Shown one piece after another: positions 709 through 10,209 of a stretch of DNA of 10,585 bases; position 1 is the first letter of the stretch; every line of letters starts with the position of its first letter. Made by a program: the position numbers and the translations under genes. The notes beneath the pieces were generated by a model that saw only the letters and a program-made list of their open reading frames with translations, was not told where the DNA came from and made no database searches. This DNA is from a virus (Duplodnaviria > Heunggongvirae > Uroviricota > Caudoviricetes): IMG/VR virus record IMGVR_UViG_2541047825_000014; one strand, written 5' to 3'.

Positions 709-3700
709 ATGGGTAAAGGCAGCAGTAAGGGGCATACCCCGCGCGAAGCGAAGGACAACCTGAAGTCCACGCAGTTGCTGAGTGTGATCGATGCCATCAG
801 CGAAGGGCCGGTTGAAGGTCCGGTGGATGGGTTAAAAAGCGTGCTGCTGAACAGTACGCCGGTGCTGGACAGTGAGGGGAATACCAATATATCCGGCGTC
901 ACGGTGGTGTTCCGGGCAGGTGAGCAGGAGCAGACTCCGCCGGAGGGGTTTGAATCCTCCGGTTCCGAGACGGTGCTGGGTACGGAAGTGAAATATGACA
1001 CGCCGATCACCCGCACCATCACGTCGGCAAACATCGACCGTCTGCGCTTTACCTTCGGTGTGCAGGCACTGGTGGAAACCACCTCAAAGGGGGACAGGAA
1101 TCCATCGGAAGTCCGCCTGCTGGTTCAGATACAGCGTAACGGTGGCTGGGTGACGGAAAAAGACATCACCATTAAGGGCAAAACCACCTCGCAGTATCTG
1201 GCCTCGGTGGTGGTGGATAACCTGCCGCCGCGCCCGTTTAATATCCGGATGCGCAGGATGACGCCGGACAGCACCACAGACCAGCTGCAGAACAAAACGC
1301 TCTGGTCGTCATACACCGAAATCATCGATGTGAAACAGTGCTACCCGAACACGGCACTGGTTGGCGTGCAGGTGGACTCGGAGCAGTTCGGCAGCCAGCA
1401 GGTGAGCCGTAATTATCATCTTCGCGGGCGCATTCTGCAGGTGCCGTCGAACTATAACCCGCAGACGCGGCAATACAGCGGTATCTGGGACGGAACGTTA
1501 AAACCGGCATACAGCAACAACATGGCCTGGTGTCTGTGGGATATGCTGACCCATCCGCGCTACGGCATGGGGAAACGTCTTGGTGCGGCGGATGTGGATA
1601 AATGGGCGCTGTATGTCATCGGCCAGAATTGCGACCAGTCGGTGCCGGACGGCTTTGGCGGCACGGAGCCGCGCATCACCTGTAACGCTTACCTGACCAC
1701 ACAGCGCAAGGCGTGGGATGTGCTCAGTGATTTCTGCTCGGCGATGCGCTGTATGCCGGTATGGAACGGGCAGACGCTGACGTTCGTGCAGGACCGACCA
1801 TCAGATAAGGTGTGGACCTATAACCGCAGTAATGTGGTGATGCCGGATGATGGCGCGCCGTTCCGCTACAGTTTCAGCGCCCTGAAGGACCGCCATAATG
1901 CCGTTGAGGTGAACTGGACTGACCCGGATAACGGCTGGGAAACGGCAACAGAGCTTGTGGAGGACACGCAGACCATTGCCCGTTACGGTCGTAACGTCAC
2001 GAAGATGGATGCCTTTGGCTGTACCAGCCGGGGGCAGGCACACAGAGCCGGGCTGTGGCTGATTAAAACGGAGCTGCTGGAAACGCAGACCGTGGATTTC
2101 AGCGTGGGCGCAGAAGGGCTTCGCCATGTACCGGGCGATGTCATTGAAATCTGCGATGATGACTATGCGGGTATCAGCACCGGTGGTCGTGTGCTGGCGG
2201 TGAACAGCCAGACCCGGACGCTGACGCTCGACCGTGAAATCACGCTGCCATCCTCCGGTACCACGCTGATAAGCCTGGTTGACGGAAATGGCAATCCGGT
2301 CAGCGTGGAGGTTCAGTCCGTCACCGACGGCGTGAAGGTAAAAGTGAGCCGTGTTCCTGACGGTGTTGCTGAATACAGCGTATGGGGGCTGAAGCTGCCG
2401 ACGCTGCGCCAGCGCCTGTTCCGCTGTGTGAGTATCCGTGAGAACGACGACGGCACGTATGCCATCACTGCCGTGCAGCATGTACCGGAGAAAGAAGCCA
2501 TCGTGGATAACGGGGCGCACTTTGACGGTGACCAGAGCGGCACGGTGAATGGTGTCACGCCGCCAGCGGTGCAGCACCTGACTGCCGAAGTCACCGCAGA
2601 CAGCGGGGAGTATCAGGTACTGGCCCGCTGGGACACGCCGAAGGTGGTGAAGGGCGTGAGCTTCCTGCTTCGCCTGACCGTGGCAGCGGACGACGGCAGT
2701 GAGCGGCTGGTCAGCACAGCCAGGACGACGGAAACCACATACCGCTTCAGGCAACTGGCGCTGGGGCGTTACACGCTGACGGTCCGGGCGGTAAATGCGT
2801 GGGGACAGCAGGGCGATCCGGCATCGGTATCGTTCCGGATTGCCGCACCGGCAGTGCCGTCGAGGATTGAGCTGACGCCGGGCTATTTTCAGATAACTGC
2901 CACGCCGCATCTTGCGGTTTATGATCCGACGGTACAGTTTGATTTCTGGTTCTCGGAAACGCGGATTACCGATATCAGGCAGGTTGAAACCACAGCCCGC
3001 TATCTTGGCACGGCGCTGTACTGGATAGCCGCCAGTATCAATATCAAACCGGGCCATGATTATTATTTTTACATCCGCAGTGTGAACACCGTTGGCAAAT
3101 CGGCATTTGTGGAGGCTGTTGGCCAGCCGAGTGATGATGCATCCGGCTATCTGGATTTTTTCAAAGGAGAGATAGGGAAAAGCCATCTGGCTCAGGAGCT
3201 GTGGACGCAGATTGATAACGGTCAGCTTGCGCCTGACCTGGCTGAAATCAGGACGTCCATTACGGATGTCAGCAATGAAATCACGCAGACCGTCAATAAG
3301 AAACTGGAAGACCAGAGTGCGGCAATTCAGCAGATACAGAAGGTTCAGGTTGATACAAATAATAACCTGAACAGCATGTGGGCTGTGAAGCTGCAGCAGA
3401 TGCAGGACGGACGCCTTTATATCGCGGGTATTGGTGCCGGTATTGAGAACACCCCTGACGGCATGCAGAGTCAGGTGCTGCTGGCGGCGGACAGGATTGC
3501 GATGGTTAATCCTGCGAATGGCAACACAAAGCCGATGTTTGTTGGTCAGGGCGATCAGATATTCATGAACGAAGTGTTCCTGAAATATCTGACGGCTCCC
3601 ACCATTACCAGCGGCGGTAATCCTCCGGCATTTTCCCTGACACCGGACGGGCGGCTGACGGCAAAAAATGCCGATATCAGCGGTAACGTGAATGCGAACT

Positions 3701-4188
3701 CCGGGACGCTCAACAACGTCACGATTAACGAGAATTGCCGGGTTCTGGGAAAACTGTCCGCGAACCAGATTGAAGGCGATCTCGTTAAAACAGTGGGCAA
3801 AGCTTTCCCCCGTGACTCCCGTGCACCGGAACGGTGGCCATCAGGGACCATTACCGTCAGGGTTTATGACGATCAGCCGTTTGACCGGCAAATTGTTATT
3901 CCAGCGGTGGCTTTCAGCGGTGCCAGACATGAACGGGAGAATAGCGATACTTATTCGTCATGCCGCCTGATAGTGAAGAAAAACGGGGCTGAAATTTATA
4001 ACCGAACGGCTCTGGATAATACTCTGATTTACACGGGTGTTATTGATATGCCTGCAGGCAGTGGCGTAATGACACTGGAGTTTTCGGTATCAGCATGGTG
4101 GGTAAATGGCTGGTATCCCACAGCAAGTATCAGCGATTTGCTGGTTGTGGTGATGAAGAAAGCCACCGCAGGCATCAGTATCAGCTGA
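709..4188 (+). CDS. J: Tail tip / host specificity protein J (central tail fiber), with a divergent C-terminal receptor-binding region
   Basis: 1159-aa ORF starting [34 protein letters not shown], recognised as lambda gpJ over most of its length. GGAG at 697-700 precedes the ATG at 709. The last ~330 aa (from about nt 3180) are AT-richer and do not look like the lambda LamB-binding C-terminus as I recall it. Confidence 0.95.
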
Positions 4189-4255: not shown

Positions 4256-4855
4256 ATGCGTAAATTATGTGCTGTTATTCTGTCCGCAGTAGTCTGGCTG
4301 GTTGCCGCTGGTACGCCAGCGAGCGCAGCAGAGCATCAGTCCACACTAAGCGCCGGGTATCTTCAGACCCATACTGATATGCCAGGCAGTGATGACCTGA
4401 AGGGCATTAACGTGAAATACCGTTATGAATTTACGGACACGCTGGGGCTGGTGACGTCATTCAGTTATGCCAATGCCAAAGATGAGCAAAAAACGCATTA
4501 CAGCGATACCCGCTGGCATGAAGATTCAGTGCGTAACCGCTGGTTCAGCGTGATGGCGGGGCCGTCTGTACGCGTGAATGAATGGTTCAGTGCTTATGCG
4601 ATGGCGGGTGTGGCTTACAGCCGTGTTTCGACGTTCTCCGGGGATTATCTCCGCGTAACTGACAACAAGGGGAAAACGCACGATGTGCTGACCGGAAGTG
4701 ATGACGGTCGCCACAGCGACACGTCTCTGGCATGGGGGGCTGGCGTGCAGTTTAACCCGACCGAATCCGTGGCCATTGATATTGCTTATGAAGGTTCCGG
4801 CAGTGGCGACTGGCGCACTGACGGTTTCATCGTTGGTGTCGGTTATAAATTCTGA
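4256..4855 (+). CDS. lom: Lom outer membrane protein (Ail/Lom/OmpX/PagC beta-barrel family); lysogenic-conversion moron
   Basis: 199-aa ORF with a signal peptide (MRKLCAVILSAVVWLVAAGTPASA) and a C-terminal GFIVGVGYKF beta-barrel terminus, recognised as lambda Lom. Ribosome-binding site GAGAGG at 4243-4248. Flanked by terminators on both sides. Confidence 0.95.
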   Translation: MRKLCAVILSAVVWLVAAGTPASAAEHQSTLSAGYLQTHTDMPGSDDLKGINVKYRYEFTDTLGLVTSFSYANAKDEQKTHYSDTRWHEDSVRNRWFSVMAGPSVRVNEWFSAYAMAGVAYSRVSTFSGDYLRVTDNKGKTHDVLTGSDDGRHSDTSLAWGAGVQFNPTESVAIDIAYEGSGSGDWRTDGFIVGVGYKF

Positions 4856-4909: not shown

Positions 4910-4919
4910 TGGAGTGGAT

Positions 4920-6983
4920 ATGGCAGCAGTAAAAATCTCAGGTGTGCTGAAAGATGGTGCGGGAAAACCAATACAGAACTGCACTATTCAACTGAAGGCA
5001 AAGCGTAACAGCACCACGGTACTGGTCAACACAGTGGCCTCTGAAAATCCGGATGAAGCCGGGCGTTACAGCATGGATGTTGAGTATGGACAGTACAGCG
5101 TCACCCTGCTGGTTGAAGGTTTTCCGCCTTCACATGCCGGGACCATTACCGTCTATGAAGGTTCCAGACCAGGTACGCTGAATGATTTTCTCGGTGCCAT
5201 GACGGAAGATGATGTCATGCCGGAGGCATTGCGTCGTTTTGAGGAAATGGTGGAAGAAGCGGCACGCAACGCTGAAGCCGCCTCTCAGAGCGCAGCGGCA
5301 GCAAAGAAATCAGAAACAGCAGCGGCATCGTCCAGGAATGCGGCGAAAACATCAGAGACGAATGCAGGTAACAGCGCGAAAGCGGCAGCTTCTTCAAAAA
5401 CAGCCGCACAAAACGCAGCAACAGCGGCAGAACGTTCAGAGACAAATGCCCGTGCGTCAGAAGAAGCCTCCGCAGACAGTGAAGAGGCTTCCCGCCGTAA
5501 TGCAGAGTCAGCCGCTGAAAATGCCGGAGTCGCCACCACAAAAGCGCGGGAGGCCGCAGCAGACGCAACAAAGGCCGGGCAGAAAAAGGATGAGGCTCTG
5601 TCGGCAGCGACACGGGCTGAAAAGGCGGCAGACCGCGCAGAAGTCGCAGCGGAAGTGACTGCAGAGCCCTATGCGAATATAGTGCCGCCGCTGCCTGATG
5701 TGTGGATACCGTTTAACGATTCACTGGATATGATTGCGGGTTTTTCTCCGGGCTATAAAAAAATAGCTATTGGTGACGATGTGGTTCAGGTCGCCAGTGA
5801 TAAACAGGTTAATTTCAGTCGCGCATCAACGGCAACATATATCAACAAATCTGGCGAACTGAAAACGGCGGAAATTAATGAGCCGCGATTTGAGTGTGAT
5901 GGCCTGCTTATTGAGGGACAAAGAACGAACTACATGCTCAATTCGGAAAGTCCAGCCAGCTGGGGGAAGTCATCAAACATGGATGTGCCCGAAACCGGGA
6001 CGGATAGTTTTGGTTTTACTTATGGAAAGTTTGTCTGCAACGATTCTCTGGTTGGGCAAACTTCGGCTATTAATATGGCATCAATTGCTGCAACAAAGTC
6101 AGTTGATGTCTCAGGCGATAACAAGTACGTGACAACCTCATGCCGTTTTAAAACAGAACGACAGGTAAGGTTACGTATACGGTTTGATAAGTATGATGGT
6201 AGTGCAACAACTTTTCTTGGCGATGCGTACATTGATACGCAAACGCTTGAAATTAATATGACAGGTGGTGCTGCCGGCAGAATTACGGCACGAGTCAGGA
6301 AGGATAAGACCACAGGCTGGATTTTTGCAGAGGCAACGATTCAGGCAATTGATGGTGAGTTAAAAATAGGCTCTCAGATACAGTATTCTCCTGAGCAGGG
6401 TGGGGCAACAGTATCTGGTGACTATATTTATCTTGCCACCCCACAAGTAGAGAATGGGCCGTGTGTATCATCATTTATTATTTCAGGAGGCAGCGCAACG
6501 ACAAGAGCCAGTGATTTGGTTAGTATCCCCACCAGAAATAATCTTTATAAGTTACCATTTACTTTTTTACTTGAGATTCATAAAAACTGGGATATTGCAC
6601 CAAACGCCGCACCCCGCGTGTGGGATATAGCAGCAGCCAATACCGGGCAATCAGCAATTGCAGCAATCAACAGAGGTAGTGGTAAGTTATATATGAGTCT
6701 GTCAAACCCTTCAGGCTCGTATGTTAATAGCGCAGCGACAGATGTATTTGCAGAGAAAACCACATTTGGATGTATTGCAAAAGCTGATGGTCACTTTCAT
6801 GTGGTGACAAATGGTAAAGCGGTTAATGAAGTTTATTGTGAATATAATGGCGTGACCGCTGATAAAAATATCCGATTTGGAGGGCAGACGAATACTGGAG
6901 AACGACATCTGTTTGGCCATATTCGCAATTTCCGCATATGGCATAAAGAATTAAATGACAGGCAATTAAAAGAGGTCGTATGA
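4920..6983 (+). CDS. stf: Side tail fiber protein (Stf-like), mosaic: conserved N-terminal tail-attachment region, Ala-rich repetitive shaft, divergent AT-rich C-terminal putative receptor-binding domain
   Basis: ORF track gives 4914-6983 with a GTG start. I prefer the ATG at 4920 (product MAAVKISGVLKDG..., matching the lambda Stf N-terminus) with GGAG at 4911-4914. No tfa-like gene follows. Confidence 0.85.
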   Translation: MAAVKISGVLKDGAGKPIQNCTIQLKAKRNSTTVLVNTVASENPDEAGRYSMDVEYGQYSVTLLVEGFPPSHAGTITVYEGSRPGTLNDFLGAMTEDDVMPEALRRFEEMVEEAARNAEAASQSAAAAKKSETAAASSRNAAKTSETNAGNSAKAAASSKTAAQNAATAAERSETNARASEEASADSEEASRRNAESAAENAGVATTKAREAAADATKAGQKKDEALSAATRAEKAADRAEVAAEVTAEPYANIVPPLPDVWIPFNDSLDMIAGFSPGYKKIAIGDDVVQVASDKQVNFSRASTATYINKSGELKTAEINEPRFECDGLLIEGQRTNYMLNSESPASWGKSSNMDVPETGTDSFGFTYGKFVCNDSLVGQTSAINMASIAATKSVDVSGDNKYVTTSCRFKTERQVRLRIRFDKYDGSATTFLGDAYIDTQTLEINMTGGAAGRITARVRKDKTTGWIFAEATIQAIDGELKIGSQIQYSPEQGGATVSGDYIYLATPQVENGPCVSSFIISGGSATTRASDLVSIPTRNNLYKLPFTFLLEIHKNWDIAPNAAPRVWDIAAANTGQSAIAAINRGSGKLYMSLSNPSGSYVNSAATDVFAEKTTFGCIAKADGHFHVVTNGKAVNEVYCEYNGVTADKNIRFGGQTNTGERHLFGHIRNFRIWHKELNDRQLKEVV
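5260..5650 (+). repeat. Low-complexity Ala/Ser/Glu-rich degenerate repeats encoding the fiber shaft of Stf
   Basis: Translation contains repeated A-A-K/S-x-S-E-T-N/A-A motifs (AAKKSETAAASSRNAAKTSETNAGNSAKAAASSKTAAQNAATAAERSETNARASEEAS...). The GC-rich GCN-codon runs generate spurious overlapping ORFs on both strands. Confidence 0.6.
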
Positions 6984-7258
6984 AAGATTTAACTTTGAAG
7001 TTTCATGACAAACTGCAGTTTAAGGCCTTCCTGTCATCTCTTGGCTGGGCGGAAGATGAAGACCTCCAGAATAAACTGTTAGTTGATGAAATTGGTTTCA
7101 CCTACACAGAAACAGGGGTAACAGAAGAGGGAGAACCTGTCTGTATCCGGAATGATGGTTATTTTGTCAACATTCGCATTCTTGATGACTTGTTTGATGT
7201 TTCTGTATTCTCTGATTATGTCGTGGAGCTGGAAACACCGCTTCGGGAATGGAGCTGA
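6980..7258 (+). CDS. Hypothetical acidic 92-aa protein, translationally coupled to stf
   Basis: The ATG at 6980 overlaps the stf stop (ATGA at 6980-6983). AGAGG at 6971-6975. No signal peptide or TM segment. No family recognised. Confidence 0.55.
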   Translation: MKDLTLKFHDKLQFKAFLSSLGWAEDEDLQNKLLVDEIGFTYTETGVTEEGEPVCIRNDGYFVNIRILDDLFDVSVFSDYVVELETPLREWS

Positions 7259-7270
7259 AAGGAGGAAATA

Positions 7271-7558
7271 ATGGATATAAGCCCCTTACTTCATGCACTT
7301 TGTGCTGTGGCTGCGCAGATACTGGTTGGTCTTTTTACCGGAAACTGGGCTTACGGAGCGATAGCCGGTTGTACGTTCTTCATTGCGCGTGAACATACCC
7401 AGGCAGAATATCGCTGGATTGAAATGTTCGGGCATGGCAAGCGAATGAATATGCCGTGGTGGGGCGGTTTTGATCCGCGTGCTTGGGATGTGGCAAGCCT
7501 GATGGATTTTGCTGTGCCGGTGGTGGCGTGTCTGCTGATCTGGATGTTGATCCGTTAA
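7271..7558 (+). CDS. Hypothetical small membrane protein (95 aa, two predicted TM helices)
   Basis: Strong ribosome-binding site GGAGGA at 7261-7266, 5 nt before the ATG. Hydrophobic N-terminal segment (LLHALCAVAAQILVGLFTG...AIAGCTFFIA) and C-terminal segment (FAVPVVACLLIWMLI), with a Trp-rich loop (NMPWWGGFDPRAWD). No family recognised. Confidence 0.6.
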   Translation: MDISPLLHALCAVAAQILVGLFTGNWAYGAIAGCTFFIAREHTQAEYRWIEMFGHGKRMNMPWWGGFDPRAWDVASLMDFAVPVVACLLIWMLIR

Positions 7559-7573
7559 ATATAAAAAGTAAAA

Positions 7574-7609
7574 AGCCGCAGTAACTTGTCATGATAGGAT
7601 ACTGCGGCT
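7574..7609 (-). terminator. Hairpin likely terminating the minus-strand dinI-like transcript (possibly bidirectional)
   Basis: AGCCGCAGTA (7574-7583) and TACTGCGGCT (7600-7609) are reverse complements with a 16-nt loop. On the minus strand the hairpin is followed by TTTTTACTTTTTAT (complement of 7561-7573). There is no T-run on the + strand. Confidence 0.45.
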
Positions 7610-7675
7610 GGCTGGTTAACTTTCGATAGTGCGAGTATTGAATGATTTCCAGCCGTTACTGATTTTACGTGCTAA

Positions 7676-7924
7676 TTAGTGAACAAACCACTCATCAGCA
7701 GACTCCCAGGTATCTTTCAGAGTTTCCTGAACAAAAGTTTTAGCTGAATCTTTATCGGCGGTGCGCGTAACAGAAAGGCCATCGTTGCTGGTGGCTTTTA
7801 CGATCACCTCTACATCGTCATAACGTTTACTGATGCGTCGGGTTAATTCTTCCTTTAACGCATCCACAGCACCGTTTGGCATTTTAGTCATTTTTTCTTT
7901 GGCTATGCAGATCTCAATACGCAT
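7676..7924 (-). CDS. DinI-family DNA-damage-inducible protein (prophage-encoded DinI-like)
   Basis: 82-aa [38 protein letters not shown]...[11 protein letters not shown] with the characteristic DinI N-terminus and acidic C-terminal TWESAD(D/E)WF motif. GAGGGA ribosome-binding site upstream. Confidence 0.9.
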
Positions 7925-7937
7925 AAAAGTCCCTCTA

Positions 7938-7989
7938 TACTGTGTTTGTATACAGTGTTATTTTTAACTGTATGGATAAACAGTGTCAA
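7938..7989 (-). promoter_or_regulatory. SOS-regulated sigma70 promoter of the dinI-like gene with two tandem LexA boxes
   Basis: Two CTGT-N8-ACAG motifs: box 1 TACTGTGTTTGTATACAGTG (7938-7957) and box 2 AACTGTATGGATAAACAGTG (7966-7985). On the minus strand a perfect -35 TTGACA (complement of 7984-7989) abuts box 2, and a -10-like TAAAAA lies 17 nt downstream (complement of 7961-7966). The -35 overlaps the integrase stop codon. Confidence 0.7.
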
Positions 7990-9083
7990 GAGGTCTTATT
8001 TCTGCTCCTTTGGAGCTCTTCAAAACGATTATGTAAAGATTTCGGATACAGTTCGGTATATACCTGCCATAGCACGTTTAATGAACGATGCCCTGTAACC
8101 TGAGCGACTTCCTCAATACTAAAACCAGCCTCAAATAAGCGACTTGCCCCTTCTCTACGCAAATCATGGTATCGCAGATCTTTAATACCTAATTTGCTTC
8201 TTACCCTCTGAAATCCTGCAGTAACAGAAGTGCTGTTATATGGAAAAATGAATTCCGATTTTTTGGGCTGTCGTTGGACGATATCCCAGGCTTCCCCAAG
8301 CAAGGCTACTTTCATGTGGTTGCCTTCCTTTTTGCGTGGATCTTTCCTGTCTCTTACGAGTATAGATTTTTGTTCCTGGTCGAGATCTTCCCATCGTAAC
8401 CGGCATACTTCTCCGATCCGCATACAGGACCACACAGAAAATTTGAGGATATCAACGAACGGAATTTTTGAGCATTTATGAGTAGATCGTTGTTGAAGGC
8501 CTTCAATGAGCATGTCCAGTTCATCAGATGCTGGTCTACGATTACGACGGTTTGATTTACCAATCAAACCAAGTTTAAGTAGATATGGGCGAGCGCTTTT
8601 CGCCGGGTTTGATGTGTAATTAATTCCGTATACAGGTTTGGCCGCATCCAGAACACTGCCAAGATAACTAACATCGTGGCTGACTGTTGCTGGACCTGCA
8701 CCAGCGTTGTTTCTTAGCCTGCAATGTTCAATTACGTCATTTTCTGTCAGTTCAGATAGTTTGATCGCGGAGATGTCACTATCCATAAGCAGTTCCAGCA
8801 CATATCTTTTAGTACGGCCTGCTTTACCTCCGGCATTTGGGTCATTTAAATATTTGTGTAGTAAGTCACGGACTGTAAGTCCGTCAACTGCATTTGATGA
8901 TGGAATGCCATATAGATCTAATTCCATCACTTTCTGTGTTCCCCATGTTTTGGCATGAGCATGTTTAGGGAATGTTTTGCTTTCCCTGTAAGTGATAACA
9001 CCTTTTTCTTTGATAATCACATTACAGCGATAGCGTGGTGTGCCATCGGATTTTAGTCGTTTCTCTATGTTATAGTACGCCAT
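7986..9083 (-). CDS. int: Phage integrase, tyrosine site-specific recombinase family
   Basis: 365-aa ORF. The C-terminal catalytic region carries R...HxxR...Y hallmarks (RYHDLRREGASRLFEAG...VTGHRSLNVLWQVYTEL). It diverges from dusA with an 88-bp intergenic spacer. Confidence 0.93.
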   Translation of the reverse strand: MAYYNIEKRLKSDGTPRYRCNVIIKEKGVITYRESKTFPKHAHAKTWGTQKVMELDLYGIPSSNAVDGLTVRDLLHKYLNDPNAGGKAGRTKRYVLELLMDSDISAIKLSELTENDVIEHCRLRNNAGAGPATVSHDVSYLGSVLDAAKPVYGINYTSNPAKSARPYLLKLGLIGKSNRRNRRPASDELDMLIEGLQQRSTHKCSKIPFVDILKFSVWSCMRIGEVCRLRWEDLDQEQKSILVRDRKDPRKKEGNHMKVALLGEAWDIVQRQPKKSEFIFPYNSTSVTAGFQRVRSKLGIKDLRYHDLRREGASRLFEAGFSIEEVAQVTGHRSLNVLWQVYTELYPKSLHNRFEELQRSRNKTS

Positions 9084-9101
9084 TACACGACCTCGTTATT
9101 T

Positions 9102-9139
9102 CGGGTTCCCATAAAACGTGGGAACCTGTGCGGGAACCT
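9102..9139. repeat. Three copies of a GGGAACC/GGGTTCCC heptamer (one inverted, two direct) in the int-dusA intergenic region; candidate integrase or regulator binding sites or att-associated repeats
   Basis: cGGGTTCCCataaaacgtGGGAACCtgtgcGGGAACCtaacg read directly from the sequence. Confidence 0.4.
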
Positions 9140-9171
9140 AACGCGAGAAAAATAGCCTGAAATGTTCAAAA

Positions 9172-10209
9172 ATGCACGATAATCATGAAACACAAAAAAT
9201 TAATCAAACCAGCGTGATGCCTGAAAAAACTGGTGTTTACTGGAATTCTCGGTTTAGCATTGCTCCTATGCTTGACTGGACGGACAGACATTGCCGTTAT
9301 TTCTTGCGTCTGCTTTCCCGCAATACGTTGTTGTATACCGAAATGGTGACCACAGGGGCGATTATTCACGGTAAAGGTGATTACCTGGCGTACAGTGAAG
9401 AAGAACATCCGGTAGCGTTGCAACTCGGGGGTAGCGATCCGGCGGCGCTGGCACAGTGTGCGAAGCTGGCAGAAGCGCGTGGATATGATGAGATCAACCT
9501 GAATGTCGGCTGCCCGTCTGACCGGGTGCAGAACGGCATGTTTGGTGCGTGTCTGATGGGTAATGCGCAGCTGGTTGCCGACTGCGTGAAAGCGATGCGC
9601 GATGTGGTGTCGATTCCGGTGACGGTGAAAACGCGTATTGGCATCGATGATCAGGACAGCTATGAATTTCTCTGCGATTTCATCAACACCGTTTCCGGCA
9701 AAGGTGAGTGTGAGATGTTCATCATCCACGCACGTAAAGCCTGGCTTTCTGGGTTAAGTCCGAAAGAAAACCGTGAGATCCCGCCTCTCGATTATCCGCG
9801 TGTGTATCAACTGAAGCGTGACTTTCCGCATCTGACGATGTCGATTAACGGTGGTATCAAGTCGCTGGAAGAAGCTAAAGCGCATTTGCAACATATGGAT
9901 GGCGTGATGGTCGGGCGCGAGGCGTATCAGAATCCGGGTATTCTGGCGGCGGTAGACCGAGAGATTTTTGGTTCCTCGGATACCGATGCCGATCCGGTGG
10001 CGGTAGTGCGCGCCATGTATCCGTACATTGAGCGTGAACTCAGCCAGGGTACGTATCTCGGCCATATTACCCGGCATATGCTGGGCTTGTTCCAGGGTAT
10101 TCCTGGCGCGCGGCAGTGGCGGCGTTATTTAAGTGAAAATGCCCATAAAGCGGGTGCAGACATTAATGTGCTGGAACACGCGCTCAAACTGGTGGCGGAT
10201 AAGCGTTAA
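9172..10209 (+). CDS. dusA: tRNA-dihydrouridine synthase A (DusA)
   Basis: 345-aa ORF with a Dus-family TIM-barrel signature ([17 protein letters not shown]...NLNVGCPS...). The exact start is uncertain: the ATG at 9172 has no clear ribosome-binding site, and an in-frame alternative lies at 9217. The first ~150 nt are notably AT-rich compared with the rest of the gene. Confidence 0.9.

Follow-up and report, generated by a model that had tools for sequence, protein, structure and literature searches.

The 10,585-nt stretch of DNA analysed here (the window) is almost certainly the right, attR-side end of an intact and collinear lambdoid prophage of about 43 kb. This prophage is of the mEp460 type, was inserted in the 5′ end of the E. 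coli dusA gene by a DusA-associated integrase (DAI), and has its attP 5′ of int. The position of int beside the tail fibre genes, which a sequence-only reading of the same DNA had singled out, is the ordinary published layout of dusA-inserting phages and was already known.

Open reading frames and domain matches give the order J, lom, stf, two small ORFs, dinI, int and dusA over the whole window, which also shows gene I upstream of J. On the plus strand, J (709-4188) exhibits seven J-specific Pfam domains and is followed by lom (4256-4855; PF06316, E = 3e-128) and by the side tail fibre gene stf (4914-6983), the final structural gene of the late operon, which encodes the PF08400 N-terminal tail-fibre domain (E = 6e-67) and matches the tail protein family phrog_1419. 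Two small ORFs come next on this strand, one of 92 aa (6980-7258; phrog_1361, E = 3e-42) and one of 95 aa with hydrophobic segments (7271-7558; phrog_1443, E = 2e-57). The minus strand then encodes a DinI-like protein (7676-7924; PF06183, E = 1e-19) and a tyrosine integrase of 365 aa (7986-9083; PF00589, E = 1e-20). The 5′ end of int points toward dusA and its 3′ end toward the phage, and a spacer of 88 bp separates it from a hybrid dusA gene on the plus strand (9172-10209; PF01207, E = 8e-105). The ORF order thus bears out the earlier statement that int forms one block with the tail-fibre end, next to the chromosome.

In the collections searched, the closest genome match to the window stands at 98.1%, and the far end of the window's own prophage is inferred from close relatives. 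Two of these relatives, L001 and L005, harbor the full prophage and are 96-98% identical to the window. Their left part comprises zur, a dusA 5′ stub, a gene with a Panacea domain, two genes for hypothetical proteins, a PrtN-family gene and exo, the last two on the minus strand. The middle part encodes ea22, yfdRQP, cI, cro, replication, Q, lysis, terminase, head and tail functions, and the right part J, lom, stf, two ORFs, dinI and int, followed by dusA. The collinear lambdoid modular order is therefore found in L001 and L005, and similarly in the virion genome of mEp460. In the latter, stf (19086-22694), dinI and int (23303-24400, minus strand) are followed by a 340-bp gap, beyond which lie gp23, gp24, an excisionase gene (pfam11112) and an exonuclease gene. 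The attP of mEp460 lies within these 340 bp, directly 5′ of int and between int and the excisionase gene, so that the first of the two options raised by the sequence-only reading, an attP upstream of int, is shown by packaged phage DNA. The search for a xis gene that it had proposed was equally productive, as the relatives encode an excisionase-type gene at the opposite prophage end from int. This PrtN-family protein of 93 aa (L001 6734-7015; PF11112, E = 3e-23) is encoded about 1.5 kb from attL, has homologues near int in five other loci and found no match among PDB sequences; judging from its domain, it is a putative RdfN-type excisionase. For the other attP-proximal cargo genes, Pfam, NCBIfam and PADLOC gave only the Panacea (SocA-like) domain of the first far-end gene.

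The phage-derived half of attR (9084-9271), corresponding to the P arm of attP, is identified by its likeness to mEp460 virion DNA: the region is 96% identical over 212 nt to the virion segment directly 5′ of int, the similarity ending at the core. The phage supplies the dusA start and the first ~100 nt of the gene (9172-9271), which correspond to phage attP DNA. The core, identified by alignment to the virion attP and to the empty attB, is a core-type att site, ATTGCTCCTATGCTTGA (9259-9275, plus strand), which is the sole att-core match in the window, and the strands are exchanged within ATGCT(T)GA (9267-9274). In the full prophages, the motif ATTGCnCCnATGCTnGA occurs exactly twice per 50-kb prophage locus, once at each prophage end, for 0.00-0.03 expected occurrences; this is the second att copy that the sequence-only reading had proposed to look for. 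The displaced native dusA 5′ stub adjoins zur at the far junction of L001, and the 340-bp gap of mEp460 corresponds to window positions 9084-9271 followed by the left-junction sequence of this relative. Recombined in silico, attL and attR yield an mEp460-type attP and an empty attB, and the rejoined attB finds matches in 1043 genomes, with up to 99.6% identity over the full 500 nt. The four sites attL, attR, attP and attB are thus related by a simple and precise reciprocal exchange. A BLAST comparison of the right and left junctions returned only an 11-nt match, TGGGAACCTGT, which corresponds to an arm-type repeat; the imperfection of the att repeats explains why the core was missed.

The spacer between int and dusA harbors three copies of TGGGAACCT (9103-9139), one inverted and two direct, which are candidate arm-type Int binding sites. 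Of the six occurrences of this motif in a 50-kb locus, five are grouped at the two junctions of the prophage. The triplet keeps its layout across other genera, where the sequence of the motif changes. This spacer must also accommodate the promoters of int and dusA; a simple promoter scan detected no sigma-70-like int promoter there.

The integrase is a member of the DAI family. Its translation presents all the catalytic residues of tyrosine recombinases (R222, H306-x-x-R309, H332 and Y342). Its gene adjoins the dusA 5′ end with the element on the int 3′ side, as in DAI genes, which have the island at their 3′ end and whose elements bring along the 5′ end of dusA (Farrugia et al., 2015; PMC4482086). 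Moreover, the dusA 5′ end is replaced and the native one displaced to the far junction, as read from the relatives, an att repeat located in dusA flanks the element, as does the semi-conserved repeat of about 21 bp in DAI elements, and a PrtN-domain RDF-type gene is encoded across attP from int. The arrangement of a lambda-type module, with attP 3′ of int and with int and xis together at attL, was not found. At the DNA level, int is 97.7% identical to that of mEp460 and 97.4% identical to that of phage 1720a-02, and 728 of the 5426 complete E. coli genomes carry it (~13%). Among 52 homologous loci from other genera, 34 have dusA divergent from the int homologue and about 90 bp upstream of it, and in six loci of other genera J or stf homologues are convergent and located 3′ of int.

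Small ORF 1 shows a 4-nt overlap with the stf stop codon and may encode an stf accessory protein rather than a moron. For small ORF 2, homology starts in many genomes only at ~7258-7270, which indicates a mosaic joint. No function was assigned to either ORF by Pfam, NCBIfam or PADLOC, and the label of morons that they had first received is unproven. Downstream, a repeat search detected an inverted repeat at 7574-7609 on the minus strand, with a 10-bp stem (GCCGCAGUA...) followed by a U-run, UUUUUACUUUUU, and a fold z-score of -3.5. This hairpin is likely a terminator for the leftward int and dinI transcripts, located between convergent transcription units. In many lambdoid phages, the accessory region that follows the tail fibre has a dinI-like gene as a conserved marker of its end. 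Indeed, the dinI module is common to more than 100 Stx phages and is the final gene before attR in YYZ-2008, a canonically ordered prophage. A LexA-box-like palindrome of the form CTGT-N8-ACAG (CTGTGTTTGTATACAG; 7940-7955) sits between a promoter-like site (7989-7960) and the dinI start, suggesting that dinI may be under LexA control from its own promoter.

The sequence-only reading had also proposed that the region is composite, with a dusA-targeting element fused to a lambdoid tail module. In this scenario, an independent element made of int, dinI and perhaps the small ORFs would be joined to a lambdoid prophage terminating at the tail fibres, by fusion or as a tandem neighbour. The composition of the region gives this proposal some substance, as GC, ~0.58 in J, falls to 0.40-0.45 from the C-terminal end of stf up to and including int, homology to other genomes or phages begins or ends at ~7258-7270, ~7602 and ~7989, and an internal int fragment is present in other prophages. 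However, low GC and mosaic joints are usual in the equivalent of the lambda b region, and each 50-kb locus has a single att pair that flanks the entire 43 kb, with a collinear genome in between. A cryptic att-like repeat had been suspected at 7559-7675, but an att-core search allowing up to three mismatches gave no match there or anywhere else in the window outside dusA, and repeat searches of this interval returned only short pairs at chance level and the hairpin, the region folding like a terminator. In addition, infectious phages (mEp460 and others) package int at this position with attP beside it, and the cognate RDF-type gene belongs to this same prophage, being encoded at its other end. 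A composite origin is therefore very improbable. The prophage genome turned out to be of the standard lambdoid type, collinear and with an int-proximal attP, which is precisely the case in which the sequence-only reading had said that its suspicion would fall.

We give still less credence to two other explanations, which we hold to be equally far-fetched. A prophage of canonical lambda order might have been rearranged after integration by inversion, deletion or inter-prophage recombination, bringing int to the tail fibres; E. coli prophages often recombine with one another, and O157:H7 strain 2571 harbors a decayed version of the element with an internal deletion. Yet packaged virion genomes carry the same order, as the mEp460 map shows, this order is kept across a 2.2-kb stretch in at least 106 complete genomes, int faces dusA in the 34 loci of other genera, and the four att sites fit a precise exchange. 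Alternatively, int could be a non-functional relic lying next to the tail fibres by coincidence, the prophage using another integrase and site. Truncated int copies do exist in other prophages, but here the ORF is full length with every catalytic residue present, the full prophages of the relatives have no other annotated integrase, and the junctions are exact DAI-type att sites. Furthermore, deletion of the 97%-identical int of 1720a-02 abolishes attP formation and excision (Balasubramanian et al., 2019; PMC6328086).

An intact prophage with attP 5′ of int can be described by a simple scheme that starts from direct observations, namely the gene order, the attP position, the junction sequences, the empty site and the conserved int-dusA arrangement. 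The circular genome reads J, lom, stf, accessory ORFs, dinI, int, attP, two or three small rightward genes, an rdfN/xis-like gene of the PrtN family, exo and the early left operon, and departs from the lambda order only in the position of attP, which is found on the xis side, 5′ of int, and not 3′ of it on the tail-fibre side. Given this position of attP, recombination at the core ATGCT(Y)GA opens the circle between int and the excisionase gene. The integrase gene then remains joined to the tail-fibre end, reading inward from the junction, and the excisionase gene ends up about 41 kb away, at the opposite prophage end. The ~190 bp between int and the core give dusA a new promoter, start codon and N-terminus. 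We infer that int has its own promoter in the spacer, overlapping the arm-type repeats, so that by analogy with KplE1 it is probably autoregulated. The RdfN-like gene, which occupies the xis slot in the distal early-left operon, would be switched on at prophage derepression and set the directionality of excision.

More generally, the excision switch could be split across lambdoid dusA prophages, with int constitutive or self-repressed among co-evolving arm repeats and the far-end RdfN-type gene alone under repressor/SOS control, a proposal whose chances we consider evenly balanced. If true, it would answer the question of what drives rdfN in prophage-like dusA elements (Durand et al., 2021). 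E. coli has two dusA 5′ alleles, with the att core as their exact point of divergence, and one of them is possibly a fossil of such an integration. K-12 yjbL-yjbM together with the dusA 5′ end was considered as such a fossil element and not adopted, the direction of change being undecidable because the long N-terminus is also native in C. rodentium and a Vibrio element has one of equal length.

The value of these results is chiefly for annotation, with nothing mechanistically new. An int gene next to tail fibres at a prophage border is no sign of a chimera or of a rearrangement when the integrase family has attP 5′ of int. Recognition of the dusA module, formed by int, the arm repeats, the phage-borne dusA 5′ end, the core ATGCTYGA and a distant PrtN/RdfN excisionase, makes it possible to place the borders of a prophage exactly. 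This applies to ~13% of the complete genomes of E. coli, and the prophages concerned include Stx-converting and effector-carrying ones.

Among known systems, mEp460 (NC_019716) and its relatives mEp460_4F5, PhiR55_1, PhiR40_1, PhiR47_1, phiSTEC1575-Stx2k, Lys8385Vzw and SKA5 are closest, their dinI-int-attP segment being 97.7-99% identical to the window at the DNA level. The order stf, dinI, int, attP, small ORFs, PrtN-type excisionase and exo is the same in mEp460, which also has early-left genes (yfdP/Q/R-like, ea22) and a structural module of the same type, whereas its stf is longer and the two small ORFs are missing between this gene and dinI. J and stf of the window are mosaic variants relative to this group. 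Similarly, the Stx2d-activatable phage 1720a-02 (KF030445), with its nearly identical int, inserts 100 bp into dusA and encodes a dusA 5′ end; the orientation of its prophage, with int at the junction, was called noncanonical although seen before (Balasubramanian et al., 2019; PMC6328086). It differs by its stx2 gene and another late-region mosaic, and was studied in Citrobacter rodentium.

The dusA islands share the int gene adjoining the dusA 5′ end with its 3′ end toward the element, the semi-conserved att core in dusA, the replacement dusA 5′ end with its promoter, and a PrtN-domain RDF across attP from int. In these elements, which supply the dusA promoter and in which Pint is constitutive, RdfN is the RDF encoded across attP from int, its activity being shown for the Vibrio homologue only (Durand et al., 2021; PMC8409611). 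The members characterised by experiment comprise islands of Acinetobacter and Pseudomonas together with an IncC-mobilisable element of Vibrio (Farrugia et al., 2015, PMC4482086; Durand et al., 2021, PMC8409611). In the Vibrio element rdfN is driven by AcaCD, whereas here the rdfN-like gene occupies the xis slot of a lambdoid early-left operon. In KplE1-type modules, int and the RDF gene also lie at opposite prophage ends and the autoregulated int promoter overlaps att (Panis et al., 2010; PMC2951348). KplE1 (CPS-53), HK620 and Sf6 resemble the present prophage in having attP between int and the RDF gene, and their int promoter overlaps the att region, as is predicted here, but they have an unrelated integrase subfamily, target the tRNA gene argW and use a TorI-type RDF, not PrtN/RdfN. 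CPS-53 moreover shares yfdP/Q/R-type early genes with the present prophage.

The circular map of lambda runs through the late genes, J, lom, stf, accessory genes, int, excisionase, exo, early-left genes, immunity, replication, Q and lysis. The gene order of the present phage is the same, so that the "different genome architecture" announced by the sequence-only reading holds for the side of int on which attP lies and is overstated for the rest. The attP of lambda is located between the b region and the 3′ end of int, and int and xis consequently remain together at attL, co-transcribed from pL and subject to sib retroregulation; in the present prophage, int is cut off from the early-left operon because attP lies 5′ of it.

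The window carries the 3' end of the lambda tail assembly gene I (1-648), J (709-4188), lom (4256-4855), the side tail fibre gene stf (4914-6983), two small ORFs of unassigned function (6980-7258 and 7271-7558), a dinI-like gene (7676-7924, minus strand), the tyrosine integrase gene int (7986-9083, minus strand) and dusA (9172-10209) followed by pspG, as assigned by ORF listing and profile searches. The 5' end of int points toward dusA, 88 bp away, and a search for tRNA genes in the window found none. This ORF order confirms the sequence-only reading that int directly adjoins the tail-fibre end and borders the chromosome. The GC content is ~0.58 in J and 0.40-0.45 from the stf C-terminus to int. 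Within J, ~520 nt (2960-3477) lack any megablast match in the relative L001, which is elsewhere 96% identical; this pattern of similarity indicates a mosaic replacement.

The full element was read in two relatives, L001 and L005, the latter being the closest of 5426 complete E. coli genomes (98.1% over all 10,585 nt). Both harbor one collinear lambdoid prophage of ~43 kb between zur and dusA, which successively encodes a Panacea-domain gene, two small genes, a PrtN-family gene and a 3'-5' exonuclease (both on the minus strand), ea22-like and yfdR/Q/P-like genes, a cI-type repressor, cro, replication genes, Q, lysis, terminase, portal, head and tail genes, and finally J, lom, stf, the two small ORFs, dinI and int, next to dusA. 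No second integrase is annotated in either prophage. The second att copy and a candidate xis gene, whose location had been proposed as a check, were both found at the far end: the att core pattern occurs exactly twice per 50-kb prophage locus, at both ends (0.00-0.03 expected), and once in the window, inside dusA, while the PrtN-family, excisionase-type gene lies at the zur-side end. Judging by these relatives, the far end in the window's own genome would comprise a dusA 5' stub, ATGCT(Y)GATAGGATGTACCG, then TGGGAGCCTATTGGGAACC and the Panacea-domain and PrtN-family genes.

The position of attP is given by phage mEp460 (NC_019716), one of eight sequenced phages to which the dinI-int-junction segment is 97.7-99% identical and whose record is the packaged linear genome. 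Its int (23303-24400, minus strand) stands in the order stf, dinI, int, a 340-bp gap, two rightward ORFs, a PrtN-family "excisionase" (pfam11112) and an exonuclease. The gap consists of window positions 9084-9271 plus the sequence of the zur-side junction of L001; the virion genome thus holds both junctions joined, adjoining the 5' end of int, and the suggestion that attP might lie upstream of int proved right. In a four-way alignment with attB (...ATTGCCCCGATGCT T GACTGGACGG...) and attP (...ATTGCTCCTATGCT C GATAGGATGT...), attL combines the left half of attB with the right half of attP, and attR (window 9259-9275) the left half of attP with the right half of attB. Strand exchange is therefore placed within ATGCT(Y)GA (window 9267-9274), which agrees with the seven-base core that Balasubramanian et al. 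reported for the Stx2d-activatable phage 1720a-02 (PMC6328086). The attB rejoined in silico (500 nt) has matches covering 80% or more of it in 1043 of the 5426 genomes, the best matches, such as that of the type strain ATCC 11775, reaching 99.6% over all 500 nt.

Two dusA 5' alleles exist in E. coli, unrelated ahead of the att core ATGCT and near-identical after it (window 9172-9271 compared with 5670-5773 of the K-12 locus and 492-550 of the ATCC 11775 locus). The "long", K-12-type allele, with yjbL-yjbM upstream, is present in 4267 of the 5426 genomes and shares 84% DNA identity with the phage-borne dusA 5' end, and the "short" allele, with zur directly upstream, in 1043. Because the break between alleles falls at the recombination core, the comparison suggests that one of them may be a fossil of an event mediated by a DusA-associated integrase (DAI). 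On the other side of attP, three rightward cargo genes precede the excisionase-type gene (L001 5486-6687; L005 5161-6362, outside the window). The first encodes a Panacea (SocA-like antitoxin) domain (PF13274, E 2e-18), and a PADLOC search of the three gave no match. Since mEp460, in contrast, has other genes in this slot, a variable cargo site adjoins attP.

It had also been envisaged that the region was composite, with a dusA-targeting element fused to a lambdoid tail module. Homology comparisons do place mosaic joints near ~7258-7270, ~7602 and ~7989, and the GC content is low from the stf C-terminus to int, but both traits are usual in this region of lambdoid phages. Moreover, there is only one att pair, virions of mEp460 carry int in the same place, and the cognate gene of excisionase type (RDF) occupies the opposite end of the same prophage. 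The cryptic att copy suspected at 7559-7675 was not found by the att-core search, and a terminator-like hairpin lies there instead. The fusion is thus rejected in favor of a single prophage with attP 5' of int.

This hairpin, an inverted repeat at 7574-7609 whose minus strand folds into a 10-bp stem and then continues in a U-run, is best read as a putative terminator of leftward int/dinI transcription, opposing rightward late transcripts. In relatives, RefSeq places at ~7599-7679 a pseudogene fragment, annotated as "capsid protein", that lacks its N-terminus and is interrupted by a stop codon; overlapping the hairpin and intergenic DNA, it is probably a spurious similarity call. A promoter scan yielded a promoter-like site for dinI (7989-7960, minus strand) and, between this site and the dinI start, there is a LexA-box-like palindrome, CTGTGTTTGTATACAG (CTGT-N8-ACAG, 7940-7955), suggesting that dinI may be under its own LexA-type/SOS control, independent of int. 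In the Stx prophage YYZ-2008, which has the canonical order, the same dinI module likewise comes last before attR; hence dinI is part of the post-tail-fibre accessory region, and it is the int-attP cassette that forms the exchangeable unit.

By sequence, the window int has the defining features of DAIs. The catalytic motifs R, HxxR, H and Y are all present in its translation. Among 52 loci of other genera encoding homologues 44-99% identical to it, dusA is divergent and ~90 bp upstream of int in 34, from genera including Kosakonia, Izhakiella, Morganella, Xenorhabdus, Proteus, Serratia, Plesiomonas, Shewanella, Idiomarina, Vibrio, Aeromonas and Algicola. J or stf homologues converge on the 3' side of int in six loci from other genera, and PrtN homologues lie near int in five. 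In published DAI islands, the island flanks the integrase gene at its 3' end and supplies the 5' end of dusA (Farrugia et al., PMC4482086). The RDF of dusA elements is a PrtN-domain protein, RdfN, with attP flanked by int on one side and rdfN on the other, a constitutive Pint and a dusA promoter coming from the element (Durand et al., PMC8409611).

Full-length int copies occur in 728 of the 5426 genomes. An internal fragment (520 bp, 96% identical; int nt 457-978, window ~8106-8627), annotated as a hypothetical protein, is found in phage cdtI (NC_009514, 23131-23652), in E. coli O26:H11 11368 (936698-937218) and, at other loci, in ~200 other E. coli genomes, and seems to be a remnant left by replacement of the integrase cassette. 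In O157:H7 strain 2571 (L060, 1-8098), one of the carriers of a full-length int, a decayed, effector-carrying dusA prophage has the same right end as the window, with a J fragment, lom, stf, three DUF1076 (NleG-like) genes, dinI, int and dusA. Most of this phage has been lost by deletion, as shown by the fusion of the J fragment to a truncated yfdQ-like early gene.

The int-dusA spacer (9103-9139) contains three copies of TGGGAACCT, one inverted and two direct, and the other attP arm two more (L001 5275-5294); the prophage junctions account for five of the six matches in 50 kb. In loci L006-L053, from other genera (~5910-6000), this layout and its spacing are kept while the ~9-bp motif varies by genus (GGGAACC, GGGGTGCT, GGTGTAC, GGTGTCC and others), as expected of arm-type sites co-evolving with the Int N-terminal domain, which these repeats probably are. 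In the regulation we propose, the int promoter would lie among the repeats and be self-regulated; the RdfN-like gene, in the slot of lambda xis at the end of the early-left operon, would be expressed on derepression and direct excision; and dinI would respond to its own promoter-like site and LexA-type box.

In lambda, integration leaves int-xis and J-stf at opposite prophage ends, because attP is located between the b region and the int 3' end. The attP of this phage is instead on the 5' side of int and separates it from the excisionase-type gene, in a circular gene order otherwise that of lambda; when the circle is opened there, int necessarily remains joined to stf-dinI next to dusA and the excisionase gene ends up near zur. 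Int and RDF genes at opposite prophage ends are widespread, as in KplE1 (the CPS-53 prophage), HK620 and Sf6, where an autoregulated int promoter overlaps att (Panis et al., PMC2951348). The location of int beside the tail fibres is thus real, fully explained and already described: phage 1720a-02 (KF030445), with an int 97.4% identical to that of the window, loses attP formation upon int deletion, and its prophage orientation was called "noncanonical ... with int adjacent to attL", yet seen before (Balasubramanian et al., PMC6328086).
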